From Bacillota bacterium (GTDB lineage Bacteria > Gemmatimonadota > Gemmatimonadetes > Gemmatimonadales > GWC2-71-9): a stretch of DNA of 64,000 nucleotides. The stretch covers positions 2,712 through 66,711 of the forward strand of contig JBLMWC010000012.1 of NCBI GenBank assembly GCA_050257015.1, given 5' to 3'. Shown piece after piece: positions 11,647-54,850 of this stretch; positions within the stretch are counted from its first letter, which is position 1, and every line of letters starts with the position of its first letter. The translations under genes were made by a program, and so were the position numbers. Below the pieces are notes generated by a model, which had not been told where the DNA came from, ran no database searches, and saw only the letters and a list, made by a program, of their open reading frames with translations.

Positions 11647-11719
11647 TGGCCAGGGACAGAATCGAACTGTCGACACCTGCATTTTCAGTGCAGTGCTCTA
11701 CCAACTGAGCTACCTGGCC
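11647..11719 (-). tRNA. tRNA-Phe: tRNA-Phe (anticodon GAA)
   Basis: The minus strand reads GGCCAGG TA GCTC AGTTGGTA GAGC A CTGCA CTGAAAA TGCAG GTGTC GACAG TTCGATT CTGTC CCTGGCC A. This is a 73-nt cloverleaf with a 7-bp acceptor stem and a T-loop TTCGATT. CCA is not encoded. Confidence 0.95.
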
Positions 11720-32561: not shown

Positions 32562-33428
32562 TCAAGCCGTCTTCTCCTTCACCTCCGTCTGCTCCTGGCC
32601 TTTCTCCTTCCGCTCCGTCACCACCTGCCCGTAGTTCAGGATCGCCACCAGCATCACTCCGCCGATCGCATTGCCGATCACCGCCGCGACGATGAACGAG
32701 ATCATCGGCGCCCACCCCGCTGACCCGACCCACACCCGGTAGAACGCCTCCGACGACCCGACGATCGAGTGCTTGAAGTCGAACGCGGAGATCGGGGCAG
32801 TGAGGAGCCAGATGAGAACGAGCTGCGCGCCGGTATGGCGCGTGGAGGCGAGCACCCAGGTGAGGAGGGCGATGAGCCAGCCGGCGAAGATCGCGTGATA
32901 GAGCGTGAGCGAGAAGGGGAGCGCCGTCGCCCGCTCCGCCAGCTGCAGCATCCCTGCCTTGAGCGGCTCGGCGACCGCCGGGGTCCGGGCCATCACCCAC
33001 GAGAACAGGAGGGTACCGGTGAGGTTGCCGGCCAGGAGCAGCCCCCAGACGCGGAGCATCCTCAGCAGCGTGACCCGGTCGCGTCGGTGGAGGAGGGGGA
33101 GCACCGGCGTGAGCGTGTTCTCGGTGAAGAGCTCGCTCCGCGCCATGATGACGAAGATGAATCCGAGCGGGTAGGCCGCTGATGCCGCCGCCGCCGCGTA
33201 GGCCGGCGGCACGAGCGAGGCGGCGTAGGCGCCGCCCAGAAAGCTGAACCCTATCGCAAGTCCCGAGGCGAAGGAGGAAATCAGAAGCGAGGCCGTCGCC
33301 CGCTTCAGCTCCTCGTCGGCCTCGCTCATCACGTTGTCGTGGATCTCGCTCGCCGACAGGCGAGTGCCGGTCTCGGGCTCGTCGACCGAGCTGCTCCCCG
33401 GCCGGCCGGGCGCTTCGGGGGATTTCAT
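32562..33428 (-). CDS. Formate/nitrite transporter (FNT) family channel
   Basis: Six-TM pattern with ..ARSELFTENT.. and ..GNLTGTLLF... 288 aa including a charged N-terminal extension. The stop is 1 nt from the convergent CDGSH gene stop. Confidence 0.8.
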   Translation of the reverse strand: MKSPEAPGRPGSSSVDEPETGTRLSASEIHDNVMSEADEELKRATASLLISSFASGLAIGFSFLGGAYAASLVPPAYAAAAASAAYPLGFIFVIMARSELFTENTLTPVLPLLHRRDRVTLLRMLRVWGLLLAGNLTGTLLFSWVMARTPAVAEPLKAGMLQLAERATALPFSLTLYHAIFAGWLIALLTWVLASTRHTGAQLVLIWLLTAPISAFDFKHSIVGSSEAFYRVWVGSAGWAPMISFIVAAVIGNAIGGVMLVAILNYGQVVTERKEKGQEQTEVKEKTA

Positions 33429-33614: not shown

Positions 33615-35495
33615 GTGTCTGCGGACGTGCGTGTCGCATTGCCGGTTCGTTTCATCGTCGCCATCGCCGCCGGTGTCCTCACTGCCGCCTGCTCGCGGGA
33701 CGGAAACGCTGCGCGCCCCGCGGCAGGCCGCCCGACCGCGGTGGCCGCCGCCACCCCGTCGGCGTCCACCGGCCGGGCCTCCATCGCGGCGGATGCGACG
33801 GCGCCGGAGGACGGTCAGTGGATCCGCCCCGCCAAGGATTACGCCTCCTCCCGCTACAGCGGGCTCGGCGACATCAACACCTCCAACGTCGCGCAGCTCC
33901 GGCCGGTGGTGACCTTCTCGACTGGGGTGCTGCGCGGCCAGGAGGCGGCGCCGATTGTCGTCAACAACACGATGTACGTCATCACGCCGTTCCCCAACTA
34001 CGTCTACGCGCTCGATCTCACGAAGCCGGGCGCCCCCGTGAAGTGGACGTACAAGCCGAAGCCGCTGGCGGCGGCCCAGGGCGTCGCGTGCTGTGACGTG
34101 GTGAATCGGGGGGTCGTCTACGCCGACGGCAAGATCATCCTCAACACCCTCGACGACCACACCATAGCCGTGGACGCCGGCACCGGTGAGGAACTCTGGC
34201 GGACGCGCGTGGGAGACATCAACCTCGGCGAGTCGCTCACGATGGCGCCGCTGGTGGTGAAGGACAAGGTGCTTCTGGGGAACAGCGGGGGCGAGTTCGG
34301 GATACGCGGGTGGCTCACCGCCCTCGACCTGAAGACCGGCAAGCTCGCCTGGCGGGCGTACGGCACCGGGCCCGACAAGGATGTGCTCATCGGCCCCCGC
34401 TTCCATCCGTTCTACGCGGCCGATCGCGCGCCCAATCTCGGCGTCGCCAGCTGGCCGGGGGACATGTGGAAGATCGGCGGCGCCGGCGCATGGGGATGGA
34501 TTTCGTATGATCCGGGGCTCGATCTCATCTACTACGGCACCAGCAACCCGGGCCCGTGGAATCCCGACCAGCGTCCCGGCGACAACAAGTGGTCGAGCAC
34601 CCTCTTCGCGCGCGACCCGGACACCGGCGAGGCCGTCTGGGCCTACCAGCTGACGCCGCACGACCTGCACGACTACGACGGCATCAACGAGAGCGTGCTG
34701 CTCGACGTTCCGTGGAAGGGACAGGTGCGGAAGGTCCTCATCCGTCCCGAGCGGAACGGCTACGTGTACATGATCGACCGGACCACCGGTGAAGTGCTCT
34801 ACGCGAATCCGTTCGGCTACATCAACTCCAGCACGGGTGTCGATCTCCGCACCGGCCGCCTCCAGGACGCACCTGACAAGACGCCGGTCCTCGGCAAGGT
34901 CGTCCGCGACATCTGCCCCGCCGCGCCCGGCGTGAAGGACTGGCAGCCGTCGTCGTTCTCGCCGCGCACCGGGTACCTCTACATCCCGCACCAGAACCTC
35001 TGCATGGATGTCGAGAGCATCGAGGCGAGCTACGTCGCGGGGACGCCGTTCGTCGGCATGAACGTGAAGATGAAGGCCGGCCCCGGTGGGCACCGCGGCG
35101 AGCTCACCGCCTGGGACCCCGTCGCCGGCAAGGCGGTCTGGGTCATCAAGGAAGACCTGCCGGTCTGGAGCGGCACCGTCGCGACGGCGGGGGATGTGGT
35201 CTTCTACGGCACGATGGACGGCTGGTTCAAGGCGCTCGACGCGCGGACCGGCACCGAGCTCTGGAAGTTCAAGACCGGCTCGGGCATCATCGGCCAGCCG
35301 ATCGTGTATCGCGGGCCCGACGGGAAGGAATACGTCGCCGTGCTGTCGGGAGTCGGCGGATGGTCGGGAGCGATCGTAGCGGGCGGGCTCGATCCGCGGG
35401 ACTCGTCGGCGGCACTCGGCTTCGTCAACGCGATGCGGGATCTGCCGCAGAAGAGCACCAAGGGCGGGATGCTCTATGTCTTCGCGCTTCCGTAG
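33615..35495 (+). CDS. xoxF: PQQ-dependent alcohol (methanol/ethanol) dehydrogenase, XoxF type, with the lanthanide-coordination signature
   Basis: SRYSGLGDINTSNVAQL..FSTGVLRGQEAAPIVVNNTMYVITPFPNYVYALDL. Vicinal disulfide VACCDVVNRG. HDLHDYDGINE with D-Y-D at 34671-34679. GGAGGAG is upstream of GTG 33615. The signal peptide is lipobox-like (VLTAAC). Confidence 0.9.
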   Translation: MSADVRVALPVRFIVAIAAGVLTAACSRDGNAARPAAGRPTAVAAATPSASTGRASIAADATAPEDGQWIRPAKDYASSRYSGLGDINTSNVAQLRPVVTFSTGVLRGQEAAPIVVNNTMYVITPFPNYVYALDLTKPGAPVKWTYKPKPLAAAQGVACCDVVNRGVVYADGKIILNTLDDHTIAVDAGTGEELWRTRVGDINLGESLTMAPLVVKDKVLLGNSGGEFGIRGWLTALDLKTGKLAWRAYGTGPDKDVLIGPRFHPFYAADRAPNLGVASWPGDMWKIGGAGAWGWISYDPGLDLIYYGTSNPGPWNPDQRPGDNKWSSTLFARDPDTGEAVWAYQLTPHDLHDYDGINESVLLDVPWKGQVRKVLIRPERNGYVYMIDRTTGEVLYANPFGYINSSTGVDLRTGRLQDAPDKTPVLGKVVRDICPAAPGVKDWQPSSFSPRTGYLYIPHQNLCMDVESIEASYVAGTPFVGMNVKMKAGPGGHRGELTAWDPVAGKAVWVIKEDLPVWSGTVATAGDVVFYGTMDGWFKALDARTGTELWKFKTGSGIIGQPIVYRGPDGKEYVAVLSGVGGWSGAIVAGGLDPRDSSAALGFVNAMRDLPQKSTKGGMLYVFALP

Positions 35496-36318
35496 CGCCG
35501 TCCTCCTCGCCGCGCTCGCCGCGGGGACAGCGGCGGCGGCGTATCAGGCGCCGCACCGCGCCCCGCGGGAGCTCCGCGTGTGCGCCGACCCGAACAACCT
35601 GCCGTTCACCAACCGTCAGGGCGAGGGATTCGAGAATCGGATCGCGGAGCTGGTCGCGCGCGATCTGCATGCGCGGCTGACCTACACCTGGTGGGCCCAG
35701 CGGCGCGGCTTCTTCCGCAACACCCTCAACGCATCGCTCTGCGACGTCGTGATGGGCGTCCCCAGCGACCTCGACATGGTCCGGCCGACGGCGCCGTACT
35801 ACCGGTCGAGCTACGTCTTCGTCACCCGCCGCGACCGGAATCTGCGGATCACGTCGCTCGACGACCCTGTCCTCCGGCGGCTCCGGATCGGCGTGCAGCT
35901 CATCGGCAACGACTACATGAACACGCCGCCGGCCCACGCCCTCTCGCGGCGCGGCATCGTGCGGAACGTCGTCGGCTACACCGTCTACGGCGACTACTCG
36001 AAGCCGAATCCGCCGGCGCGCATCCTCGACGCGCTGGCGCGCGGCGAGGTGGACGTCGCGATCGTGTGGGGCCCGCTGGGCGGCTACTTCGCCACGCGGG
36101 AGCGGACGCCCCTCGTCATCACGCCGGTCACCCCGGAAATGGAGCCGCCCGGGATCCCGCTGGCCTACAACATCTCCATGGGGGTGCGGAAGGCGGACGA
36201 CTCGCTCCGGCGCGAGCTCGATCGGGTGATCGTCCGTCGGCGCGTCGAGATCGACCGGATCCTCGAGGCGTTCGGCGTGCCGCGCCGGCCGCTGCCGCCT
36301 ACCACGCCTGCATCGTAG
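35476..36318 (+). CDS. xoxJ: Quinoprotein-dehydrogenase-associated periplasmic binding protein (MxaJ/XoxJ family)
   Basis: LRVCADPNNLPFTNRQGEGFENRIAELVA..YTWWAQRRGFFRNTL..CDVVMGVP..YYRSSYVFV is the MoxJ-type SBP pattern. It overlaps the xoxF end by 20 nt. Confidence 0.85.
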   Translation: MSSRFRSAVLLAALAAGTAAAAYQAPHRAPRELRVCADPNNLPFTNRQGEGFENRIAELVARDLHARLTYTWWAQRRGFFRNTLNASLCDVVMGVPSDLDMVRPTAPYYRSSYVFVTRRDRNLRITSLDDPVLRRLRIGVQLIGNDYMNTPPAHALSRRGIVRNVVGYTVYGDYSKPNPPARILDALARGEVDVAIVWGPLGGYFATRERTPLVITPVTPEMEPPGIPLAYNISMGVRKADDSLRRELDRVIVRRRVEIDRILEAFGVPRRPLPPTTPAS

Positions 36319-36330
36319 CGCGAGGACGTC

Positions 36331-36888
36331 ATGCCGCATCCCTCTCTCCGCCTCGCACTCATCCTCGCGGGACTGCTGCTGGCCTCGGCCTGCCAGCGGG
36401 AGACCCGCCGCTTCCGCGAGTCGCCGCCCGCTGCGACTTCCGAGACCGCCGTCGCGATGAGCGAGCTGCAGCCGGGCCCGAAGGCGCGCGCGCTGCCGGT
36501 GGTGAACCCGTATGAGAAGAACGCCTACGCCGTCTCCGAGGGCGAGCGCCTCTTCGGCGCCTACAACTGCACCGGCTGCCATTCCCACGGCGGCGGCGGG
36601 ATCGGTCCGGCGCTGATGGACGACGAGTGGATCTACGGCAGCGACCCCGAGAACATCTTCTCCACGATCGTCGAAGGTCGCCCGAACGGCATGCCGACCT
36701 TCCGCGGGAAGATCCCCAACTACCAGGTCTGGCAGATCGTGGGCTATGTCCGCTCGATGAGCGGGCTGCTCGCCAAGGACGTGGCGCCCGCGCGGGACGA
36801 CCATATGGTCATGGTGCCCGAGCCGCAGCGCACGCAGGTGAAGGAGCCGATCCACGCCTTCACGCCGCCGGCGGCGGAGCATCCCTGA
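36331..36888 (+). CDS. Lipoprotein-anchored mono-heme c-type cytochrome
   Basis: Lipobox LLLASAC, heme site NCTGCH and distal GMPTF. It belongs to the family commonly encoded just upstream of aa3/caa3 oxidase genes. Confidence 0.85.
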   Translation: MPHPSLRLALILAGLLLASACQRETRRFRESPPAATSETAVAMSELQPGPKARALPVVNPYEKNAYAVSEGERLFGAYNCTGCHSHGGGGIGPALMDDEWIYGSDPENIFSTIVEGRPNGMPTFRGKIPNYQVWQIVGYVRSMSGLLAKDVAPARDDHMVMVPEPQRTQVKEPIHAFTPPAAEHP

Positions 36889-37841
36889 TGCCGGACTGGC
36901 TCCAGTCGGTGCTGCAGCCCGCGGGGCCTCAGGCGGAGCGGATCCACGCGCTGTGGCGCTTCATGCTCGCCGTCTCGGTGGTGGTCTACGTCGTCGTCGT
37001 CGGAGCTCTCCTCCTCGCCGCCTTCCGGCGCCGCCACACCGAGGCCGAGCTGGCCGAGGGCGCGCCGGGTGAGCGGGGAGTGACGCGGATCGTCTCGTTC
37101 GCGACGGCCGTCACGGCGCTCACCCTCTTCGCGTTTCTCGTCTTCGATTTCTCGACCGGCCGCGCGCTGACATCCACCGTGAAGCCGTCGGTGGCGATCG
37201 AGGTGACCGGCCACCAGTGGTGGTGGGAGGTGACCTACTACCATGACATTCCCAACAAGCGGGTCACGACCGCGAACGAGATCCACATCCCGGTAGGCAG
37301 TCCGGTGCTCATCCGCCTCAATTCGCAGGACGTGATCCACAGCTTCTGGGCCCCGGACCTCAACGGCAAGCGCGACCTCATTCCCGGCAAGGAAAGCAGC
37401 CTCTGGCTGCAGGCCGACACCCCTGGCGTCTACCGCGGCCAGTGCGCCGAGTTCTGCGGGTACCAGCACGCGAAGATGGCGTTCGTCATCGTGGCCGACC
37501 GCCCGGCCGACTTCCAGCGCTGGTACGCGGCGCAGGCCGACACGGCGAAGACCCCCACCGACTCGCTCACGTCGCGGGGGCAGGAGGTCTTCCTCACGTC
37601 GCCGTGCGTGATGTGCCATGCCATCCACGGCACCCCCGCCGGAGCCACGCTCGGGCCCGACCTCACGCACATCGCCAGCCGGCGCTACATCGGCGCGGGC
37701 TCACTGCCCAACACCCGCGGCAACCTCGCCGGGTGGATCCTCGACGCGCAGGGAATCAAGCCCGGCGCGCGCATGCCGCCGAACAGTCTGGCCCCGGCCG
37801 ACCTCCAGGCTCTCCTCGCCTACCTCGGGACTCTGAAATGA
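36888..37841 (+). CDS. ctaC: Cytochrome c oxidase subunit II with a fused C-terminal cytochrome c domain (caa3-type)
   Basis: CuA site CAEFCGYQHAKM and the C-terminal heme motif CVMCH. The start is the ATG in the TGATG overlap. It lies within track ORF 36627-37841. Confidence 0.92.
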   Translation: MPDWLQSVLQPAGPQAERIHALWRFMLAVSVVVYVVVVGALLLAAFRRRHTEAELAEGAPGERGVTRIVSFATAVTALTLFAFLVFDFSTGRALTSTVKPSVAIEVTGHQWWWEVTYYHDIPNKRVTTANEIHIPVGSPVLIRLNSQDVIHSFWAPDLNGKRDLIPGKESSLWLQADTPGVYRGQCAEFCGYQHAKMAFVIVADRPADFQRWYAAQADTAKTPTDSLTSRGQEVFLTSPCVMCHAIHGTPAGATLGPDLTHIASRRYIGAGSLPNTRGNLAGWILDAQGIKPGARMPPNSLAPADLQALLAYLGTLK

Positions 37842-39781
37842 GTGCGCCGATCACCGCCGATCCCGCCGCCGTGGAGCCGGCGGAGCGCGCATCGGTTCGC
37901 GAGCTCCACGAGGAGCTGCACCGGACCTGGGCCGACGGGCCGGGACTCCTCGGCTGGCTGATGAGCGTGGATCACAAGTCGCTGGGCAAGCGATACGTGA
38001 TCACCGCCTTCGTCTTCTTCCTCCTCGGCGGCATCGAGGCGGCGATGATGCGGGTACAGCTGGCGCGACCCGAGAGCCGGCTGATCGGGCCCGATCTCTA
38101 CAACCAGCTGTTCACCACCCACGGCACCACGATGATGTTCCTCTTCGCGGTGCCGGTGATGGTGGCCATGGGACTCTATCTCGTCCCGCTGATGATCGGC
38201 TCGCGCGATGTCGCCTTCCCCCGGCTCAACGCCTACGGATACTACACCTACCTCATCGGCGGGCTGTTCCTCTATGCGGCGTTCTTCCTCAACACCGGAC
38301 CCGACGCGGGATGGTTCGCGTACACGCCGCTCTCGGGGCCCGAGTTCGCCCCCGGCAAGCGCGTGGACGTCTGGGCGCAGACGATCACCTTTACCGAGAT
38401 CTCGGCGATCATCGGCGCCATTGAGCTGATCGTCACGATCTTCAAGCAGCGCGCGCCGGGGATGTCGCTCAACCGGATGCCGCTCTTCGTGTGGTCGGTG
38501 CTGGTGATGGCGTTCATGATCCTGTTCGCCATGCCGTGGGTGGCCGTGGACAGTCAGTTCCTCGCGATGGACCGTCTGATCGGCACCCACTTCTTCAACC
38601 AGGCCGAGGGCGGCGACGCGCTCCTCTGGCAGCACCTGTTCTGGTTCTTCGGGCATCCCGAGGTCTACATCATCTTCATCCCGGCGCTCGGGTACGTCTC
38701 GACGATCATCGCCACCTTCACCCGGCGCGAGATCTTCGGCTACCCCGCGATGGTCCTCTCGCTCGTCGCCACCGGCTTCCTCGGCTTCGGGCTCTGGGTG
38801 CACCACATGTTCGCGACCAACATCCCGCAGCTCGGCGAGAGCTTCTTCACCGCCGCGAGCGCCATGATCGCGATCCCCACCGGGGTGCAGTTCTTCTGCT
38901 GGATCGCCACCATCTGGGGCGGACGCCCGCGCTTCACCACGCCGTTCCTGTTCATCCTCGGCTTCATGGTGACATTCCTGATCGGCGGCCTCTCCGGCGT
39001 GATGGTCGCCTCGGTGCCGTTCGATCTTCAGGTTCACGACACCTTCTTCGTCGTCGCGCACCTCCACTACGTGCTGATCGGCGGCGCCGTCTTCCCGCTG
39101 TGGGGCGCGTTCTACTACTGGTTCCCGAAGTTCACCGGCCGGATGCTGAGCGAGCGGCTGGGCCGCTGGAACTTCGCGCTCTTCTTCATCGGGATGCATC
39201 TCACGTTCTTCCCGATGCACCAGCTCGGCCTCGACGGGATGCCGCGCCGGGTCTACACGTACCTGGCGGAGACCGGCTGGGGAACGCTGAACCTCGTCGC
39301 CACGATCGGCGGCGTCACCATCGCCGTTAGCGTCCTGGTCTTCCTGTTCAACGTCGCGCGGTCGCTCGCCAACGGCGAGATCGCGTCCAGCGATCCGTGG
39401 GAGACGAGCTCCACTCTCGAGTGGGCCACGACCTCGCCGCCGCCGCCGTACAACTTCGCGCACCTTCCAGTGGTCCAGGGCCGCTACCCGCTCTGGAGCC
39501 GGACGCTCGACGAGCCCGTCGTCACCGGTCTCCGGACCGACCAGCGTCAGCTGCTGATCACAACGCTGCTCGATGCTGCGCCCGACCATCGGCATCGCAC
39601 GCCCGATCCGACGCTGTGGCCGCTCGTCGCCTCCATCGCCACCGGCATCACGTTCATCGCGCTGATCTTCACGCCGTGGGCACTGGTCGTCGGTGCCGCG
39701 CTCATCGCGGGGCCGCTGATCGCGTGGGGCTGGCCCAGGCCCAAGCCGGGAGATCCGATCGTGACCGGAGGCGTCCGATGA
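37838..39781 (+). CDS. ctaD: Cytochrome c oxidase subunit I (with an extra C-terminal two-helix extension)
   Basis: VDHKSLGKRY, TTHGTTMMFLF, WFFGHPEVYI and HHMF motifs. 647 aa. ATGA overlap. It lies within track ORF 37442-39781. Confidence 0.95.
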   Translation: MSAPITADPAAVEPAERASVRELHEELHRTWADGPGLLGWLMSVDHKSLGKRYVITAFVFFLLGGIEAAMMRVQLARPESRLIGPDLYNQLFTTHGTTMMFLFAVPVMVAMGLYLVPLMIGSRDVAFPRLNAYGYYTYLIGGLFLYAAFFLNTGPDAGWFAYTPLSGPEFAPGKRVDVWAQTITFTEISAIIGAIELIVTIFKQRAPGMSLNRMPLFVWSVLVMAFMILFAMPWVAVDSQFLAMDRLIGTHFFNQAEGGDALLWQHLFWFFGHPEVYIIFIPALGYVSTIIATFTRREIFGYPAMVLSLVATGFLGFGLWVHHMFATNIPQLGESFFTAASAMIAIPTGVQFFCWIATIWGGRPRFTTPFLFILGFMVTFLIGGLSGVMVASVPFDLQVHDTFFVVAHLHYVLIGGAVFPLWGAFYYWFPKFTGRMLSERLGRWNFALFFIGMHLTFFPMHQLGLDGMPRRVYTYLAETGWGTLNLVATIGGVTIAVSVLVFLFNVARSLANGEIASSDPWETSSTLEWATTSPPPPYNFAHLPVVQGRYPLWSRTLDEPVVTGLRTDQRQLLITTLLDAAPDHRHRTPDPTLWPLVASIATGITFIALIFTPWALVVGAALIAGPLIAWGWPRPKPGDPIVTGGVR

Positions 39782-40413
39782 GCGCGGTCGAGTCGGCCCG
39801 GATGCAGGGAGAGCGCGGATCGATCGACGTCTCCGCCCTGCCCGAGACCACCTTCGGGCACCGCGCGGTCACGTGGTGGGGAACCCTCGGCTTCATGGCC
39901 GCGGAGGGGACGACCCTCCTCATCTGCGCCGTCGCCTACCTCTATGTGCAGCGGAACTTCCGGCAATGGCCACCGTCGGAAACTCCGCTGCCGTCGCTCA
40001 CCATCCCGACGGTGCAGGTCGCCCTCATGCTGCTCAGCATCCCGGTGATGGTGTGGACCGCGCACGCCGCGCGCCGTCTGGAGCTGGGCAAGATCCGGCT
40101 CGGCATGGTGCTCTCCACCGCCTTCGCCCTCGCCTTCTGCGTGCTGCGCTGGTTCGAGTTCCGGGCCCTGCACACCCGCTGGGACAGCAACGCCTACGGC
40201 TCCGTAGCATGGGCGATCGTCTTCGCCCACGCCACGCTCCTGGCCGCGCAGTTCGGCGAGAGCGCCTCGATGGCGGCGCTCCTCTTCACCGGCCCGGTCG
40301 AGCCGAAGCACTTCGCGGACGTCGACGACAGCTGTCTCTACTGGTACTTCATGACCGGCTCCTGGGTGCTGCTCTACCTGCTGGTCTTCATCTCGCCGAG
40401 ACTCATGCAATGA
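39778..40413 (+). CDS. ctaE: Cytochrome c oxidase subunit III
   Basis: 211 aa and multi-TM, with ..TFGHRAVTWWGTLGFMAAEGT.. and ..YWYFMTGSWVLLY.., typical of subunit III-like proteins. ATGA overlap. Confidence 0.8.
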   Translation: MSAVESARMQGERGSIDVSALPETTFGHRAVTWWGTLGFMAAEGTTLLICAVAYLYVQRNFRQWPPSETPLPSLTIPTVQVALMLLSIPVMVWTAHAARRLELGKIRLGMVLSTAFALAFCVLRWFEFRALHTRWDSNAYGSVAWAIVFAHATLLAAQFGESASMAALLFTGPVEPKHFADVDDSCLYWYFMTGSWVLLYLLVFISPRLMQ

Positions 40414-40796
40414 ATCGCGAGCTCGAGATCGACACCAGCACCGGCATCCCCGACGCCCGGCACGTCGTGGCCCAGGTGGCCGGCGTCCTCGTCCCGCCGC
40501 TGGCGACGCTGGCGGGGATGGAAGTCTCCTACGGCCTCGTCGGGCCGGCCTGTACGTCGGGCAACACCCTCGCGCTCCACCTGACCCGGCTGGTGACGCT
40601 CCTCGTCGTCCTCGGTGCCGGGCTCATCGCGTGGCGGGAATGGCGCGCCGTCGGTGTCGAGCACCCCGGCGACGGCGGAAGCCCGGGCACGCGGGCCCGG
40701 TTCCTCTCGTGGGTCGGCGTCTTCGCCGCGGGCCTCTTCTCGCTGGTGGTGATTGCCCAGTGGCTCGCCGGCCTCTTCCTCTCGCCCTGCCAGTGA
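40410..40796 (+). CDS. Small integral membrane protein of the oxidase cluster (unknown function)
   Basis: 128 aa with three to four hydrophobic helices. It is tied to both neighbours by ATGA/GTGA overlaps. Confidence 0.6.
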   Translation: MNRELEIDTSTGIPDARHVVAQVAGVLVPPLATLAGMEVSYGLVGPACTSGNTLALHLTRLVTLLVVLGAGLIAWREWRAVGVEHPGDGGSPGTRARFLSWVGVFAAGLFSLVVIAQWLAGLFLSPCQ

Positions 40797-41662
40797 ACGC
40801 ACCGCTCGCGCCACACGATCTCTGGAGGGCCTGGAGCTCCGATCCCGGCATCGTGCTGCCGCTCGGCCTTGCCGCGGTCCTGTACGCACGCGGCCTCCGG
40901 GCGCTCTGGCATCACGCCGGGGCGGGACGCGGCATCCGTCGCTGGCAGGCGGGCGCGTTCGCTGCCGGCTGGCTGGTGCTGGCGATCGCGCTCGTGTCCC
41001 CGCTGCACGAGCTCGGGGAAACGCTCTTCTCCGCGCACATGGCACAGCACGAGCTCCTCATGGCGGTCGCCGCGCCGCTCCTCGTGCTGGGCCGCCCGGT
41101 CATTCCCTTCCTCTGGGGGCTTCCAATCGGGTGGCGGCGCGTCGCCGGTCAATGGGCCTCCACGCCGCCGGTACGGGCGACGTGGCACGCCCTCACCCTG
41201 CCCTCGGTCGCGTGGACGCTGCACGCCACCGCGATCTGGGCCTGGCACGCGCCACGGCTCTACGATGCCGCCGTCACGAGCGACCTGGTCCATGCGCTCC
41301 AGCACGCGAGCTTCCTCGGCTCGGCGCTGCTCTTCTGGTGGGCGCTGATTTACGGGCGAAACGGCCGCCTCCGCTACGGCGCCTCGGTGCTCTACATCTT
41401 CACCACCGCGCTCCACACCACGGCGCTTGGCGCGGTGCTCTCGCTCGCGTCGCGGCCGCTCTACCCGGCGTACACCGCCACTGCGGCGTGGGGACTGACA
41501 CCGCTCGAGGACCAGCAGCTCGCCGGACTGATCATGTGGGTGCCGGCGGGCATCGCCTACCTGGTCGCGGCGCTGGCGCTGATGGCGGGATGGCTGCAGG
41601 AGGCGGAGCGGCGCACCGTGCGGTCGGAGGCGGCGGCGCTGGCGCTCCGAGGCCAGCCATGA
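40793..41662 (+). CDS. ctaG: Cytochrome c oxidase assembly protein, caa3-CtaG (Bacillus type) family
   Basis: Multi-TM protein with ..LVSPLHELGETLFSAHMAQHELLMAVAAPLLVLG.. and ..HALQHASFL... GTG 40793 overlaps the upstream stop. Confidence 0.8.
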   Translation: MNAPLAPHDLWRAWSSDPGIVLPLGLAAVLYARGLRALWHHAGAGRGIRRWQAGAFAAGWLVLAIALVSPLHELGETLFSAHMAQHELLMAVAAPLLVLGRPVIPFLWGLPIGWRRVAGQWASTPPVRATWHALTLPSVAWTLHATAIWAWHAPRLYDAAVTSDLVHALQHASFLGSALLFWWALIYGRNGRLRYGASVLYIFTTALHTTALGAVLSLASRPLYPAYTATAAWGLTPLEDQQLAGLIMWVPAGIAYLVAALALMAGWLQEAERRTVRSEAAALALRGQP

Positions 41663-42033
41663 CGCGCCTCACGCTCGCCGTCCTCGCGCTCATGCTTGCC
41701 GGTGCCGCCTGCGACCGCGAGCCGGCCGACCGCTCGATGCGGCAGCTCACCGGCGGGGACTCCCACCGCGGCCGGCAGATCGTACGGGCGTACGGCTGCA
41801 CCGCGTGCCACCTGATCCCCGGCGTGCCCGGCCCCGATGCGCGGGTCGGTCCCCCGCTCGCCGGAATCGCCAGCCGCGCGTTCATCGCCGGCGTGCTGCC
41901 GAACCAGCCCGGCAACATGATCCGCTGGATCCGCGATCCGCAGGGCGTCGGCCAGCGGACCGCCATGCCCGACATGGGTGTCAGCGAGCGCGACGCGCGC
42001 GACATCGCCGGCTATCTGTACACCCTGAGATAG
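41659..42033 (+). CDS. Lipoprotein-anchored mono-heme c-type cytochrome (second copy)
   Basis: Lipobox MLAGAAC, heme motif GCTACH and distal TAMPDMG. ATGA overlap. Confidence 0.8.
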   Translation: MTRLTLAVLALMLAGAACDREPADRSMRQLTGGDSHRGRQIVRAYGCTACHLIPGVPGPDARVGPPLAGIASRAFIAGVLPNQPGNMIRWIRDPQGVGQRTAMPDMGVSERDARDIAGYLYTLR

Positions 42034-42043
42034 CGAGGCCTCC

Positions 42044-42454
42044 GTGCCCGGCCGCCTCGCCGTCGCGCTCGTGCTTCTCACCGCCTGCTCGAGCGGACCC
42101 TCACCGAAGAAGGCGGAAAAGGAGCGCGAGCGCGCTGCGTCCGCCGCCACCTCGGCCGGCATGATCGCCGCCGCGTGGGACTCCGGCGCGGCGCCCGGGA
42201 TCTACGCCTCGCACGCGCTCCGGCGGATCAGCGCGGACTTTCGCCAGGGAGGGGAGGCGCCGGTGTGGTCCGCGCTTCCCCCCGCCTCACGCATCGCGCT
42301 CACCGCCGAGCTCGGAGCACTGCATGGAGTGACCGCGGGGATCGACAGCGCGATCGGCCGCCGGGACCACGCCGCAGTGCGCACACTCCACCGCGCACTC
42401 GCGGAGCACGGCCACGCGCTTGCCGCCGTCCCGATCGACACCGCGTCCCGATGA
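42044..42454 (+). CDS. Helical His-rich lipoprotein of unknown function
   Basis: Classic lipobox LLTACSS. 136 aa, Ala/His-rich (..RDHAAVRTLHRALAEHGHALA..). Its stop overlaps the Nramp-like start (ATGA). Confidence 0.6.
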   Translation: MPGRLAVALVLLTACSSGPSPKKAEKERERAASAATSAGMIAAAWDSGAAPGIYASHALRRISADFRQGGEAPVWSALPPASRIALTAELGALHGVTAGIDSAIGRRDHAAVRTLHRALAEHGHALAAVPIDTASR

Positions 42455-43665
42455 AGCGTCTCATCGAGATCGCCCTCGGCATCGTCACCGGGATCGGCGG
42501 CTTCCTCGAGGCCGGCTCGCTCGCCACCAGCGCGCAGGCCGGCGCCGACTTCCGCTTCGACCTCATCTGGGCAGTGGTCCTCGGCGCGACCTGCCTCGCC
42601 TTCCTGGTCGAGATGTCGGGCCGGCTTTCCGCCATCAGCAAGCACACTCTCCCCGACGCCATCCGCGAGCGGTTCGGCTTCCGCTTTTTCGTGCTGCCGC
42701 TCGTGATCATGCAGCTGGTCATGCTCCTCGTAATGGTGACCGAGCTCGGCGGCGTCTCGATCGCACTCCAGTTCATCAGCGGCGTGAGCTACCGCTGGTG
42801 GGCCATCCCCGTCGGGGGGCTCACGTGGGCGCTCCTCTGGAAGGGAACGTTCGGCCTGATCGAGAAGGGAGTGTCACTGCTCGGGCTCGTCACCCTCGCG
42901 TTCGTCGTGGGAGCGCTGCACCTCCACCCGCCGATGGCCGAGGTGGCGCGCGGTGCCCTTCCTCGCCTCCCGTCCCATGACAGCGCCCACTACTGGTTCC
43001 TCGCCGTAAGCATCCTGGGCGCGTCGATCAGCCCGTATCTCTTCTTCTTCTATTCCGCGGGCGCGGTCGAGGACCGGTGGGACGTGAGCCACCTGACGAT
43101 CAACCGGATCACCGCCGGCGCCGGCATGGGCTTCGGCGGCATCGTGGCGATCGGCGCACTCGTGCTCGCGGGAATGATCTTCCACCCCGCGGGCATCCAG
43201 GTGGACAGCTTCGACCAGCTCCCGCTCCTGCTCACGAGCGCGTTCGGACACTGGGGGTTCGTGCTGTTCGTCGCCTCGCTCGCGATCGCCTGCTTCGGCG
43301 CCGCGCAGGAGATCGCCCTCACCTCGGCCTACCTGATGGCGCAGGGATTCGGCTGGCGCTGGAGCGAGAACCTGCCTCCGGCCGCCGATGCGCGGTTCAG
43401 TCTCACCTACACCGCGATCACCGCGCTGGCGGTCATCCCGATCGCCGCCGGCGTGGACGTGCTCAAGCTGACGAACATCTCGATGGTCTTCAGCGCCGCG
43501 TCGCTGCCGTTCGTCGCGCTGCCGCTCCTCGTCATCATGAACGACCGGCGCTTCCTCCGCGATCACTGCAACGGCTGGGTGGGCAACATCGTCGTCGCGC
43601 TCATCGCCGTCCTCGCCTTCGTGCTCGCGGTCGTGTCGTTCCCCCTGCTCATTACCGGAGGGTGA
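42451..43665 (+). CDS. Nramp-family transporter with a non-canonical metal-binding site
   Basis: The TM1 region GIGGFLEAGSLATSAQAGADFRFDLIW aligns without gaps to canonical ..DPGN.ATN.QAGA.YGY.LLW. The TM6 region ILGASISPYLFFFYS aligns to ..GA.VMPH..YLHS. 404 aa. It lies within track ORF 42175-43665. Confidence 0.85.
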   Translation: MKRLIEIALGIVTGIGGFLEAGSLATSAQAGADFRFDLIWAVVLGATCLAFLVEMSGRLSAISKHTLPDAIRERFGFRFFVLPLVIMQLVMLLVMVTELGGVSIALQFISGVSYRWWAIPVGGLTWALLWKGTFGLIEKGVSLLGLVTLAFVVGALHLHPPMAEVARGALPRLPSHDSAHYWFLAVSILGASISPYLFFFYSAGAVEDRWDVSHLTINRITAGAGMGFGGIVAIGALVLAGMIFHPAGIQVDSFDQLPLLLTSAFGHWGFVLFVASLAIACFGAAQEIALTSAYLMAQGFGWRWSENLPPAADARFSLTYTAITALAVIPIAAGVDVLKLTNISMVFSAASLPFVALPLLVIMNDRRFLRDHCNGWVGNIVVALIAVLAFVLAVVSFPLLITGG

Positions 43666-43666
43666 G

Positions 43667-44032
43667 ATGCTGCTCGTGCGTGACGTGCTCGACAAGCAGA
43701 TGCTGGACCGCGACGGCGACAAGATGGGGAAGGTGGACGGCGTGGTGCTCCAGGTGAGCGAGGAGGGTCCGCCGCGCGTCGTCTATCTGGAGGCCGGCGC
43801 CCCGACGCTCGCCCGCCGCCTGGGGCTGCGGATCGGACGCTGGGTATCGCGCCTGGCCCGGCGCTGGGGCGGCGCCCACCCGGAGTCATACCGCATTCCA
43901 TGGACGAAGGTCCGCGAGGTGACGCTGGACGTGCGCATCGACGTGAAGGCGGACGAGACGCGGGTAAACGTGGTGGAGGACTGGCTCCGCACGCATGTGG
44001 TGGAGCACCTGCCGGGAGGGAAGAAACAGTGA
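43667..44032 (+). CDS. PRC-barrel domain protein
   Basis: VRDVLDKQMLDRDGDKMGKVDGVVLQV is a PRC-barrel-like N-terminus. GGAGGG lies inside the end of the Nramp gene, with a 1-nt gap to it. Confidence 0.65.
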   Translation: MLLVRDVLDKQMLDRDGDKMGKVDGVVLQVSEEGPPRVVYLEAGAPTLARRLGLRIGRWVSRLARRWGGAHPESYRIPWTKVREVTLDVRIDVKADETRVNVVEDWLRTHVVEHLPGGKKQ

Positions 44033-44319
44033 CGCCGCGGGAGGTGCATCTCGAGCTGCTGCTCGGTCGGCGAGTGCGGGACAGCCGCGGCCGCCCCGCC
44101 GGCCGCATCGAGGAGGTGCTCGCGGATCGCGAGGACCTCGACTGCGTCGTGCGCGAGTTCCATCTCGGCCCTCACGCGCTGGTGGAGCGTCTCTCGCTTC
44201 CGCTCGTTCGATTCTTTCGCGGCCGGTCGCACGGCCTGCGCCCGGTGCCGTGGGACCGGCTCGACCTGACCGATCCCGCTCAGCCGCGGCTCACCTGCAC
44301 CCTCGAGGAGCTGAAGTAG
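44029..44319 (+). CDS. Small PRC-barrel-like protein
   Basis: LLLGRRVRDSRGRPAGRIEEVLAD.. resembles a PRC-barrel. GTGA overlap with the upstream gene. It lies within track ORF 43900-44319. Confidence 0.5.
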   Translation: MTPREVHLELLLGRRVRDSRGRPAGRIEEVLADREDLDCVVREFHLGPHALVERLSLPLVRFFRGRSHGLRPVPWDRLDLTDPAQPRLTCTLEELK

Positions 44320-48404: not shown

Positions 48405-49781
48405 ATGCAGCTGTCCGCAAAAGAAGTATGGAAGCGCATCCTGGATGAGGCGCATCGCGAACTTCCAGCTCATACGATCCGGACCTGGCTCGAGCCCACC
48501 GAGGCAATCGCGCTCGATGAGGGCCGCCTGATCGTCGGCGCGCCCGACCAGTTCGCCGTTGAGTGGAATGAATCAAAGCACGCCGCCCTCCTGTCGCGCC
48601 TCGCCCGGCCCGTGCTCGGCGAGGAGACGACCGTGGTCTTCCGCGTCCAGGAAGACCGCCAGAAGCGGCCGCAGATGGACTTCTTCGTCGCGCCGACCGC
48701 CCCGGCGCAGCCGGCGCCCGTCAATCCCAGCACCCAGCCGCTCAACGAGCGCTACACCTTCGACACCTTCGTCATCGGCAAGTCGAACGAGCTCGCCGCC
48801 GCCGCCGCGCACGCCGCCGCCGAGACGCCGGGCAAGACCTACAACCCGCTCTTCATCTACGGCGCCACCGGGCTGGGCAAGACCCACCTGATGCAGGCGA
48901 TCGCCCACGCCGTCTGCCAGAACAATCCCGGCACCCGCGTGCTCTACGTCGGCGCCGAGCAGTTCATCAACGAGGTCATCGAGAGCATCCACGGCCGGAC
49001 GATGCCGGAATTCCGGCGCCGCTACCGCACCGACGTGGACCTCTTCCTGGTGGACGACGTCCATTTCCTTGAAGGCAAGGAAATGACCCAGGAGGAGTTC
49101 TTCCACACCTTCAACGCGTTGTACGAGGCCAACAAGCAGATCGTCCTGACCTCGGACCGCCCGCCCAAGGAGATCCCGGGCCTCGAGTCCCGCCTGGTGA
49201 GCCGCTTCGAGTGGGGCATGGTGGCCGACATCGGCCAGCCGGATCTCGAGCACCGGATCGCCATCCTGCGCAAGAAGCAGGAGCAGGACCACCTGGAGAC
49301 CACGATCCCCGACGATGTGCTCCGCTTCATCGCCGAGCACGTGCGTTCGAGCGTGCGCGAGCTGGAGGGGTGCATCATCAAGCTCCTGCTCTTCGCCTCG
49401 CTCAAGCACCGCGAGATCTCGATCGAGCTGGCGCGCGAGGCGCTCTCCGACAAGATCAGGCCCGGCGAGGACTTGAACGAGCCCAAGCCGCTGCCCACGA
49501 TCCACAAGGTGCAGGAGGTCGTCGCCCGCCGCTGGGGCGTCACGCCGGAGGGGCTCCGCAGCAAGGCGCGCATCAAGACACTGACCGTGCCGCGCCAGAT
49601 CGCCATGTACCTCGCGCGCGAGCTCCTGCAGATGCAGCTCGTCGAGATCGGGCAGGCGTTCGGCGGCCGTGACCACTCGACCGTGATTCACAGCGTCGAC
49701 AAGGTCCAGCAGCAGATCGCGCGCGACCGCGCCTTCCGCGACCGCATCGATCACGCGCGCCAGGAGCTCTGCGCGCAGTAA
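48405..49781 (+). CDS. dnaA: Chromosomal replication initiator protein DnaA
   Basis: NPLFIYGATGLGKTHLMQAI (Walker A), LLVDDVHFLEGKE, the SSVRELEG sensor, and the C-terminal DNA-binding QIAMYLARELL..IGQAFGGRDHSTVIH. Confidence 0.97.
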   Translation: MQLSAKEVWKRILDEAHRELPAHTIRTWLEPTEAIALDEGRLIVGAPDQFAVEWNESKHAALLSRLARPVLGEETTVVFRVQEDRQKRPQMDFFVAPTAPAQPAPVNPSTQPLNERYTFDTFVIGKSNELAAAAAHAAAETPGKTYNPLFIYGATGLGKTHLMQAIAHAVCQNNPGTRVLYVGAEQFINEVIESIHGRTMPEFRRRYRTDVDLFLVDDVHFLEGKEMTQEEFFHTFNALYEANKQIVLTSDRPPKEIPGLESRLVSRFEWGMVADIGQPDLEHRIAILRKKQEQDHLETTIPDDVLRFIAEHVRSSVRELEGCIIKLLLFASLKHREISIELAREALSDKIRPGEDLNEPKPLPTIHKVQEVVARRWGVTPEGLRSKARIKTLTVPRQIAMYLARELLQMQLVEIGQAFGGRDHSTVIHSVDKVQQQIARDRAFRDRIDHARQELCAQ

Positions 49782-54426: not shown

Positions 54427-54466
54427 GGACGGGCGGGCATGGGCTGAATGCCCACCCCGCCCGTCC
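54427..54466 (-). terminator. Strong hairpin at the 3' end of rnpB
   Basis: On the minus strand, GGACGGGCGGGGTGGGC-ATTCA-GCCCATGCCCGCCCGTCC forms a stem of about 17 bp. It is followed by GCTTCCCC, so there is no real U tract. Confidence 0.5.
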
Positions 54467-54850
54467 CTGGCCGAGCCGTAAGCCGAGTTCTGTTTCCCTT
54501 GCGGGAGATGGTCATCTGTCTGGGACGGCCGTCGCCGACCGCCTCGAGCAGCCTACCCGCGGCTTCCTCGTCCGCTTGCGCGTCCGGGTTGTCGGTGTGG
54601 GTCACACCTCGCCGCCTATTTGGCCTTGCTCCGACTGGGGGTTGCCGTGCCGCTTCTGTTGCCAGAAGCGCGGTGGGCTCTTACCCCACCGTTTCACCCT
54701 TACCACCCGGTTGCCCGGGGGCGGTTTGTTTTCTGTGGCCCTGTCCGTCGCCTTGCGGCGCCCAGGCGTTACCTGGCAGTCTACCCGATGGAGCTCGGAC
54801 TTTCCTCGAGTGCCTTGCGGCACCCGCGACCACCGCGCTCAACCAGTCCC
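54463..54850 (-). ncRNA. rnpB: RNase P RNA, bacterial type A
   Basis: The minus strand contains GAGGAAAGTCCGAGCTCC (CR-I), GGTAAGGGTGAAACGGTGGGGTAAGAGCCCACC (CR-II/III) and ACAGAACTCGGCTTAC (CR-V). P1 can form between CTGGTTGAGC (5') and GCTCGGCCAG (3'). The ends are accurate to about 5 nt. Confidence 0.92.

Follow-up and report, generated by a model that had tools for sequence, protein, structure and literature searches.

A conserved four-gene cassette with an Nramp-related transporter and a rebuilt putative ion site

The stretch of DNA analysed here, 64,000 nucleotides of contig JBLMWC010000012.1 (assembly GCA_050257015.1, Gemmatimonadota) and referred to below as the window, encodes at positions 42451–43665 a 404-residue transporter of the Nramp family in which nearly all of the canonical metal ligands are replaced. 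An initial annotation, made from the sequence, had recognised this protein and the lipoprotein encoded just upstream, and had suggested a hard-cation importer with an all-oxygen site, possibly serving a neighbouring lanthanide-type dehydrogenase. The analysis described here places the transporter within a larger cassette, adds a conserved methionine to its putative ion site and points to a divalent metal cation, perhaps Mn2+, as the substrate.

The four-gene cassette

Four genes follow one another, abutting or overlapping, on the plus strand:

42044–42454, plus strand: lipoprotein, 136 residues, lipobox LTAC; ATGA overlap with the transporter gene
42451–43665, plus strand: Nramp-related transporter of the ExGS/ASxSPY/Met345 type, 404 residues, 11 transmembrane (TM) helices; PF01566, 199.5 bits
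43667–44032, plus strand: PRC-barrel-like partner 1 (PRC1), 121 residues, no signal peptide; orthologue in 80/80 loci
44029–44319, plus strand: PRC-barrel-like partner 2 (PRC2), 96 residues, paralogue of PRC1; orthologue in 80/80 loci

The TGA of the lipoprotein gene and the ATG of the transporter gene share the sequence ATGA, as first noted; PRC1 starts one nucleotide past the transporter stop codon, and the GTG start of PRC2 overlaps the PRC1 stop as GTGA. One genome per species was scanned for relatives of the transporter (335 found), and the best 80 loci were analysed with flanks of up to 10 kb. These come from Gemmatimonadota (20), Acidobacteriota (15), Mesorhizobium and another alphaproteobacterium (20), Cyanobacteria (24) and Chloroflexia (1), and all encode proteins 56–80% identical to the transporter over its full length. 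Homologues of both PRC1 and PRC2 follow the transporter gene in every one of the 80, on the same strand and abutting or overlapping. The lipoprotein gene lies upstream in most, always with a 4-nucleotide overlap where it is present; a few loci of Acidobacteriota and Gemmatimonadota lack it, and there the gene for the oxidase assembly factor CtaG abuts the transporter gene. The true unit is a cassette of lipoprotein, transporter and two PRC-barrel paralogues, and the extent originally assigned to the finding, 42044–43665, omits the partner genes at 43667–44032 and 44029–44319.

The lipoprotein is conserved in a manner that argues against one of its supposed properties. Among 52 orthologues from five phyla, the lipobox Cys and the pattern S..A..V...W..G..P..YA...L are kept; in the window protein the signal peptide ends in LLTAC, a lipobox judged by inspection. 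The protein had been described as His-rich, and its mature form does have 6 His in 122 residues (4.9%), the highest proportion among the 52 orthologues, for which the median is 1.6%. However, no His column is conserved among these orthologues, so that richness in His is not a family trait, and we rejected a His-rich, metal-binding lipoprotein for this reason. Its proposed role as a partner of the transporter is favoured by its conservation and translational coupling, although it shows no sign of metal binding.

PRC1 and PRC2 are paralogues, as indicated by an hhalign probability of 95%. Of nine PRC1 and PRC2 proteins scanned, seven have PF05239 as their sole Pfam match, always below 21.2 bits (E 6e-4 to 0.25) and short of the gathering threshold, and two have no match; the window PRC1, in its own scan, gave only a weak match to VMAP-M0 (E 0.006) and not to PF05239. 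Orthologues are nevertheless named 'YlmC with PRC-barrel domain' (PRC1, by JGI) and 'PRC-barrel domain-containing protein' (PRC2, by PGAP). The AlphaFold2 model of PRC1 (pLDDT 77) comprises a β-barrel with a two-helix insert at residues 45–68, and its top 50 Foldseek matches in the Protein Data Bank (PDB) are all PRC-barrel proteins, the best of them weak (E 1.8e-3). Among the top matches are CdpB1 and CdpB2 of A. fulgidus (8ONW, 8QZO), which are likewise small, paralogous PRC-barrel proteins encoded side by side. These form an archaeal cell-division heterodimer, however; the similarity is at the level of the fold only (E ∼3e-3), and the two-helix insert belongs to the cassette proteins. Since neither PRC1 nor PRC2 has a signal peptide, both should be cytoplasmic. 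No literature joining 'PRC barrel' with 'Nramp' was found. Published general-stress regulons include stand-alone PRC-barrel genes, not this cassette, and a paper on Nostoc PRC proteins covers AvaK-type proteins, which are distinct from PRC1 and PRC2.

The identical four-gene layout surrounds more distant relatives (34–44% identity) with other residues at the ion site, and it occurs on a Streptomyces plasmid; neither xoxF nor cox genes are near these cassettes. Because the layout recurs at such identities with different site residues, the cassette is older and broader than the ExGS site of the window transporter.

Family, fold and putative ion site

The transporter matches PF01566 over residues 24–375 well above the gathering threshold of 29.8 bits, which bears out its first assignment to the Nramp family. 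It misses all NCBIfam cut-offs for Nramp and MntH proteins, with 101.5 bits against 430 for NF001923, 53.5 against 272.5 for TIGR01197 and 41.5 against 50 for NF037982. Of the solved relatives, EleNRMT (7QIA) is the closest by sequence (E 5e-28), followed by DraNramp (3e-21) and SiNRAT (3e-11). An AlphaFold2 model built on 18 homologues (pLDDT 87.5, pTM 0.88) has 11 TM helices, with TM1 broken at residues 19–20 and TM6 at 194–195, where the site residues lie. It has the LeuT-type fold with unwound TM1 and TM6 and matches Nramp structures with TM-scores of 0.78–0.91, in the Foldseek order EleNRMT (TM-score 0.91, rmsd 2.7 Å), DraNramp, BfraNramp, a YcsG model and NRAT; the closest structures are all metal transporters.

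HMMER aligns the TM1 and TM6 site segments to DraNramp and EleNRMT without gaps, and MAFFT, for which the EleNRMT and DraNramp references were partial sequences rebuilt from the printed HMMER alignments, gives an identical mapping. Both agree with the ligand replacements originally listed at positions 20, 23, 191, 194 and 196. The correspondences are as follows:

Glu20: the universally conserved Asp
Ser23: Asn in canonical Nramps, Gly in NRMT
Ala191: Ala in canonical Nramps, Thr in NRMT
Ser194: Met in canonical Nramps, Ala in NRMT
Tyr196: His in canonical Nramps, Trp in NRMT
Glu98: the TM3 Glu (equivalent to E134)

In place of the canonical DPGN of TM1 the protein has E20-A-G-S23, and in place of A/C-x-x-M-P-H in TM6 it has A191-S-I-S194-P-Y196. 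Strict conservation is seen for the acidic TM1 residue and the TM3 Glu. In the alignment, the proton pathway (an Asp/Glu network in TM3, His in TM6b and an Arg pair in TM9) is mostly gone: only Glu98 and one Arg (R315) have counterparts, and its two TM6 His positions are occupied by Tyr196 and Tyr201.

One ligand position had been overlooked. The canonical TM10 Gln (Q378 in DraNramp, Gln379 in EleNRMT) aligns with Met345, which is invariant across the 80 loci and sits in an invariant [ST]-M pair (window positions 43475–43485, codons 343–345). Since, by alignment, the thioether of Met345 occupies the TM10 ligand position, the predicted site is not the all-oxygen site first envisaged. For the same reason the argument that loss of the TM6 Met signals a hard cation is incomplete: the nearest relative, EleNRMT, is indeed hard-cation-capable, but a thioether is conserved here at another position. 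Q298, a candidate for the equivalent of Q378, was rejected as it belongs to the 'MQGF' motif of TM8. Across 33 diverse relatives Met is found at the TM6 or the TM10 ligand position and never at both (0/7 versus 11/26, Fisher p = 0.067), a trend only; as 15 of these sequences have neither Met, a rule of one Met per site was not adopted.

How does this protein relate to the known branches of the family? It fails the defining tests of canonical Nramps, of NRMT and of NRAT, yet it clearly belongs to PF01566. With the canonical Nramp/MntH proteins (DraNramp, ScaDMT, EcoDMT, DMT1) it shares the Pfam family, the LeuT-type fold, the acidic TM1 residue, the TM6 Ala and the TM3 Glu, but DPGN has become EAGS, MPH has become SPY and the TM10 Gln has become Met. 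With EleNRMT it shares 11 TM helices, the absence of the TM6 Met and His, the TM3 Glu and the loss of most proton-pathway residues. NrmT genes are likewise accompanied by a small accessory gene, there an MgtE-like fragment, whereas the partners here are a lipoprotein and PRC-barrel proteins. The two proteins are, however, only 23% identical. The NRMT signature is DxxG in TM1 and TxxA/T in TM6 (PMC8806188), and the TM10 Gln379 of EleNRMT is required for transport, against ExxS, AxxS and Met345 in the window protein; the cassette also lacks the M-box riboswitch of NRMT. A neighbour-joining (NJ) tree, crude and with no bootstrap support, separates canonical Nramps, an NRMT-like group (DAGG/TTIAPW, TM10 Gln) and a sister group that holds the window transporter, which does not cluster with EleNRMT, P0250, P0233 or P0261. 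On site signature, TM10 Gln and tree position we rejected filing the protein under NRMT; its branch is probably sister to the NRMT Mg2+/Mn2+ transporters.

The plant NRAT proteins (SiNRAT, PDB 8ONT) offer another parallel, in that a hydroxyl residue replaces the Met, an extra Ser is present in the TM1 loop and the remodelled site is rich in oxygen; SiNRAT accommodates trivalent ions via Ser and Thr hydroxyls. In contrast to the bacterial ExxS...AxxS protein, NRATs are plant-specific, lie near canonical Nramps, read DxxN...AxxT and have a second acidic residue on helix 3. The match is weak (E 3e-11, TM-score 0.81), and the protein does not qualify as an NRAT.

More generally, diverse 'Nramp-related' or 'outgroup' proteins without DPGN and MPH are already recognised in the literature (PMC9606685, PMC10606218, PMC12873925), where the only characterised or proposed members belong to the NRMT-like group or are B. 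subtilis MntG. Like the window protein, MntG (YcsG) and the other such groups of a 2026 Gaudet-lab preprint match PF01566, lack DPGN and MPH, and are largely uncharacterised; the YcsG model 9A52 matches the structure with a TM-score of 0.80 at 15% sequence identity. The signature of Cellier's 'orphan outgroup', GYGNGG in helix 3 and V..Y in helix 6, is not seen in the window protein, whose TM3 reads VTELGG. The Lut/Ped systems for lanthanide uptake consist of a TonB receptor and an ABC importer, and the transporter comes from an unrelated family.

Site types and genomic surroundings

More than 3366 proteins match the transporter at E ≤ 1e-10. In the 120 best homologues (60–98% identity; Gemmatimonadales, Blastocatellia, Pyrinomonadaceae) the ExGS motif is found in 119, the remaining one being gapped there, and ASxSPY in 118, the exceptions reading ACISPY and ASITPY; the replacements are thus not a chance feature of one protein but run through the clade. 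An exhaustive search of representatives at 50% identity returned 2523 relatives, of which no more than one or two stand for this clade. The full-length relatives that come next (26–44% identity) read GGF[LV][DE]xG[ADEGQT...] in TM1 and ...[STM]PY in TM6.

Two site types dominate the 80 loci. ExGS with A[ST]xSPY is found in 53, from Gemmatimonadota, Acidobacteriota and Alphaproteobacteria, and DVGA with A[LIV]ISPY in 26, namely all 24 cyanobacteria, the Chloroflexia locus and one acidobacterium. Only six of the 404 positions divide cleanly by type (E20D, S23A, K139N, A155T, S192L and G299A), and three of them (20, 23 and 192) fall in the TM1 and TM6 ion-site segments. In a locus from Gemmatimonadales (L053, 10001–13445), two cassettes stand in tandem directly after xoxF-cox-ctaG genes, one with EAGS/ASVSPY and the other with EVGA/ALISPY. 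Both have their own PRC1 and PRC2, but the second lacks a separate lipoprotein gene. That a single locus keeps tandem cassettes with different sites speaks against redundancy of the variants.

In some relatives the Asn/Ser23 position bears a second carboxylate, as E-M-G-E, E-V-G-E or D-x-G-D/E (L085 12001–13221, from Caballeronia; L082 4001–5239), a variant that might suit more highly charged ions. Some rhizobia have a second, distant Nramp-family gene a few kb from the cassette (L088 9709–10977, Rhizobium sp. Pop5; L043 14379–15665).

The cassette is the last part of a closely packed gene row on the plus strand, spanning 33615–44319, which begins as follows:

33615–35495, plus strand: XoxF-type (lanthanide-type) pyrroloquinoline quinone (PQQ) methanol/ethanol dehydrogenase, first of the row; TIGR03075, 630 bits
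35476–36318, plus strand: XoxJ/MoxJ-like periplasmic binding protein; TIGR03871, 317.5 bits
36331–36888, plus strand: c-type cytochrome (XoxG-like); PF13442 and PF00034
36890–40413, plus strand: aa3-type cytochrome c oxidase subunits II, I and III (approximate starts); CuA motif CAEFCGYQHAKM, CoxI motif WFFGHPEVYI, orthologous annotated operons
40413–40796, plus strand: small hydrophobic open reading frame (ORF) in the coxIII–ctaG gap (start uncertain); no Pfam match
40631–41662, plus strand: caa3-type CtaG cytochrome oxidase assembly factor (start uncertain); PF09678, 205 bits
41650–42033, plus strand: second c-type cytochrome; PF00034 and PF13442

The identification of the leading gene as a lanthanide-type dehydrogenase was upheld: its top PDB match is SolV XoxF (4MAE, E 2e-197), and it bears a D-Y-D motif (HDLHDYDG) with the second, lanthanide-diagnostic Asp. 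No genes for a TonB-dependent receptor or ABC transporter of the lut type were found among the ORFs scanned upstream of xoxF or in the gene row. Divergent from xoxF is a gene of the formate/nitrite transporter family (32562–33428, minus strand; PF01226, E 8e-50), which could link periplasmic C1 oxidation to formate uptake. The small ORF between coxIII and ctaG recurs at this position, labelled 'hypothetical protein', in every annotated version of the oxidase cluster, and Voutsinos et al. (PMC10875860) liken it to vesicle-transport proteins. A scan of 32.4–45 kb for sigma-70 promoters and terminators revealed no promoter-like sites, and terminator-like sites only at chance level, none of them within the cassette. 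The window as a whole (G+C ∼70%) adjoins chromosomal origin genes, with dnaA at 48405–49781, rnpA, yidD, yidC and mnmE on the minus strand, and mutS; an Rfam scan placed RNase P RNA at 54463–54846 (minus strand, 278.8 bits) and a tRNA at 11647–11719 (minus strand).

Is XoxF the partner of the cassette? Of the 53 ExGS loci, 32 contain genes of the xoxF/xoxJ/ctaG set in the fetched stretch, as against 0 of the 26 DVGA loci (Fisher p = 5e-8; when only loci with 9 kb or more of upstream flank are counted, p = 8e-7). xoxF itself is present in the fetched stretch of 11 of the 80 loci, all from Gemmatimonadota or Acidobacteriota. CtaG/cox is the commonest neighbour; CtaG occurs in 30 loci, sometimes abutting the transporter start, and cox/ctaG genes adjoin ExGS types in four lineages. 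Complete plasmids, on which flank length sets no limit, show a looser association. On Mesorhizobium pB1-1-8 the cassette lies between pqqBCDE and a convergent xoxF-xoxJ-cytc-coxB-ctaD-cox3-hyp-ctaG-cytc operon, with xoxF ∼14 kb away. On two Rhizobium plasmids, in contrast, the cox-ctaG-cytc cluster is headed by an FdhF/YdeP oxidoreductase and not by XoxF. In Caballeronia (site E-M-G-E) a cox-ctaG cluster is found 4 kb from the cassette, with no methanol/ethanol-family (XoxF-type) dehydrogenase annotated in the 25-kb stretch; a membrane-bound PQQ dehydrogenase of the glucose/quinate type is encoded ∼7 kb downstream. Conversely, xoxF-cox clusters occur on M. ciceri pMc1284 and Methylocella p1, in M. 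ciceri with the same gene order as in the window, and neither replicon has the cassette.

These counter-examples, in both directions, led us to reject a strict dependence on XoxF. Of the co-occurrence proposed for testing at the outset, the part concerning the PRC genes holds throughout the 80 loci and the part concerning xoxF in some ExGS loci, and the XoxF link is neither necessary nor sufficient. Because the cassette also adjoins cox clusters that are headed by YdeP or have no XoxF-type dehydrogenase, its recurrent partner is the alternative oxidase island rather than XoxF. The oxidase link is not obligatory either: the cassette stands alone in the 24 cyanobacterial loci, and cox genes are absent from the vicinity of several ExGS loci. 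The island is also variable in its arrangement, since in two Gemmatimonadales loci the cassette comes after xoxJ (L006, ∼9100–10000) or after xoxF-xoxJ-cytochrome c (L032, ∼7900–9300) with no cox detected between.

Upstream sequences suggest that in the Rhizobiales the cassette is under the control of EcfG, a general-stress sigma factor whose consensus is GGAAC-N16-CGTT (PMC3892343). A perfect copy is found ∼60 nucleotides upstream of the lipoprotein gene in Rhizobium sp. T1473, and GGAAC-N16-C[CT]TT, with one mismatch, occupies the equivalent place in 16 of 19 Mesorhizobium-group loci and in the plasmid locus L083, against a background of ∼1 per 21 kb. EcfG-type motifs lie at L084 11511–11537 and near 9510 in the Mesorhizobium loci (9509 in L019), and four of the latter have a second copy after PRC2, near 12087. 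Rhizobiales neighbours include genes for ferritin-like, DUF892, DUF3618, 'nutrient deprivation-induced', CsbD and general stress proteins, LigD and Mn catalase, and in Actinobacteria-type contexts the cassette is set amid STAS, PP2C and anti-sigma genes. These regulatory and ecological hints are leads, not proof. Upstream of the cassette, neither a riboswitch nor any other Rfam element was detected, whether in 13 loci from cyanobacteria and alphaproteobacteria or in the whole window, and an alignment of cyanobacterial upstream regions revealed no conserved operator block. A Nostoc locus (L077) has five tandem copies of the nitrogen-stress small RNA NsiR1 at 129–1222, ∼9 kb upstream of the cassette and probably unrelated to it.

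The gene association has been described before. Voutsinos et al. 2024 (BMC Biol, PMC10875860) report XoxF3 of Acidobacteria and Gemmatimonadetes co-localised with CoxI–III, CtaG, CytC, XoxG and XoxJ, mention 'three small hypothetical proteins surrounding' an NRAMP gene and propose that the NRAMP protein may transport lanthanides. Their XoxF3-Cox-CtaG-CytC-NRAMP cluster is the same as that of the window. Neither the XoxF-cox-NRAMP association nor the lanthanide hypothesis is therefore new. The passages of the paper that were consulted contain no analysis of site residues, including the Gln-to-Met change, and no identities for the partners, and make no mention of the ExGS/DVGA dichotomy, of cassettes away from XoxF or of EcfG-like promoters.

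Substrate and function

What, then, does the cassette transport? We favour, with a probability of about 0.5, an importer of metal cations that belongs to stress and respiration islands, represents an uncharacterised Nramp-related branch, works with lipoprotein and PRC-barrel partners and carries a divalent ion, Mn2+ being the first candidate. Family membership, the site residues, the conservation of the cassette and the make-up of its neighbourhoods were established here, and transport direction, substrate, complex formation and regulation are inferred. The transporter would be a secondary importer with a rebuilt ion site, formed by Glu20 and Ser23 in the unwound part of TM1, by the Ala191 carbonyl, Ser192 and Ser194 in the unwound part of TM6, and by Met345 in place of the TM10 Gln, with the TM3 Glu98 kept. 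It may act in a complex with a membrane-anchored periplasmic lipoprotein and a cytoplasmic PRC-barrel pair, all translationally coupled, in which the PRC-barrel proteins probably form a heterodimer that docks on the transporter or gates it. The cassette would be ancient and mobile, its ExGS form having been recruited, in Gemmatimonadota, Acidobacteriota and Proteobacteria, beside an alternative aa3 oxidase/CtaG respiratory island that XoxF or YdeP would feed.

Among the divalent cations, the most likely class of substrate, Mn2+ is the best single choice, and Mg2+, Ca2+ and Fe2+ are possible. This preference derives from the characterised or proposed Nramp-related proteins, all of which move Mn2+, from the Met kept at a ligand position, and from the success of the cassette in organisms and contexts without XoxF. 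EleNRMT transports Mg2+ and Mn2+ without H+ coupling, an outgroup protein of A. capsulatum behaves as a Mn transporter and B. subtilis MntG is a proposed Mn importer (PMC8806188, PMC4072509, PMC12873925). The conserved Met, read from the alignment, argues that the site has retained some transition-metal character.

Several considerations weigh against this interpretation. Substrate and function of the clade members are predictions from sequences and models, and Met345 is a candidate ligand by virtue of its alignment position. The complex with the lipoprotein and PRC proteins is deduced from gene coupling, and the role of EcfG from a promoter consensus. No Mn-responsive riboswitch or operator was found in the regions searched. 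The neighbourhood statistic is confounded by phylogeny and taxonomy, and the extra hydroxyls and longer carboxylate of the ExGS site would also be suitable for a hard cation of larger size or higher charge, such as Ca2+ or Ln3+.

The last point leads to the published alternative, a dedicated Ln3+ importer for XoxF whose oxygen-rich ExGS site would bind light lanthanides for carriage to the cytoplasm for regulation or storage. The window gene shares a tight row with a XoxF-type dehydrogenase near which lut-type TonB and ABC genes were not found, xoxF accompanies 11 of the 80 cassettes, and on Mesorhizobium pB1-1-8 the cassette lies beside pqqBCDE. The ExGS site also adds Ser23, Ser192 and a Glu to what the DVGA type offers, the DVGA type is never near xoxF, and the hydroxyls of SiNRAT show that Ser and Thr can serve trivalent ions. 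Known lanthanide sites are carboxylate-rich, however, and this one would have one or two carboxylates (E20, E98) and Met345 at a ligand position. ExGS and ExGE cassettes moreover accompany cox clusters that have YdeP or lack a XoxF-type dehydrogenase, the M. ciceri and Methylocella plasmids manage xoxF-cox operons of the same order without a cassette, and the cassette predates and outranges XoxF contexts, as in cyanobacteria, Chloroflexia and Streptomyces. We therefore consider a lanthanide importer unlikely. Improbable too is the boldest version of the idea, that the ExGS/ASxSPY/Met345 cassette is the first secondary-active transporter for lanthanides, or for hard cations of the size of Ca2+, made up of several subunits including the lipoprotein and a PRC-barrel heterodimer, with the DVGA type moving another ion and specificity set by a three-residue switch (E20D, S23A, S192L).

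The prominence of CtaG and cox genes, whether the dehydrogenase is XoxF, YdeP or absent, raises a different prospect, in which the cassette supplies or balances a metal for the adjacent alternative aa3-type oxidase, whether for its Mg/Mn site between subunits I and II, as Ca2+, or as copper in conjunction with CtaG, and the XoxF link is only indirect. Met345 could suit a softer ion. Nramp-type importers, however, deliver to the cytoplasm, and the metal sites of the oxidase face the periplasm or membrane; the 26 DVGA loci and several ExGS loci have no cox nearby, and cox-ctaG clusters exist without the cassette, so that we regard this role as quite unlikely. Much the same doubt attaches to the proposal that no metal is moved at all, the protein being a carrier of a small organic cation or other solute, or a sensor (transceptor) signalling through the PRC-barrel pair. 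It would account for the replacement of nearly all canonical ligands and for obligatory accessory proteins, which are unusual for Nramps, and the Nramp-related groups are very diverse and almost wholly uncharacterised (PMC12873925). Yet TM1 always has its acidic residue and TM3 its Glu, the site segments are short, polar and unwound like those of ion-binding relatives, and the nearest structures are all metal transporters.

Nramps are a standard example of how a few residues can determine metal selectivity. To our knowledge, the only off-type branches that have been characterised are NRMT (Mg2+) and NRAT (Al3+), and we know of no Nramp with obligatory accessory proteins. The clade described here would provide a third, naturally re-engineered site, with Glu, Ser, Ser and a Met moved to TM10, together with a close sister type distinguished from it by only about six residues, of which three belong to the TM1 and TM6 ion-site segments. 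It is widespread in soil bacteria and cyanobacteria, and because it includes culturable and genetically tractable rhizobia, the question of its substrate, including the published lanthanide idea, is directly answerable by experiment. Even if the substrate proves to be Mn2+, the result would still be a useful correction of annotation and a pointer to a stress-linked uptake system.

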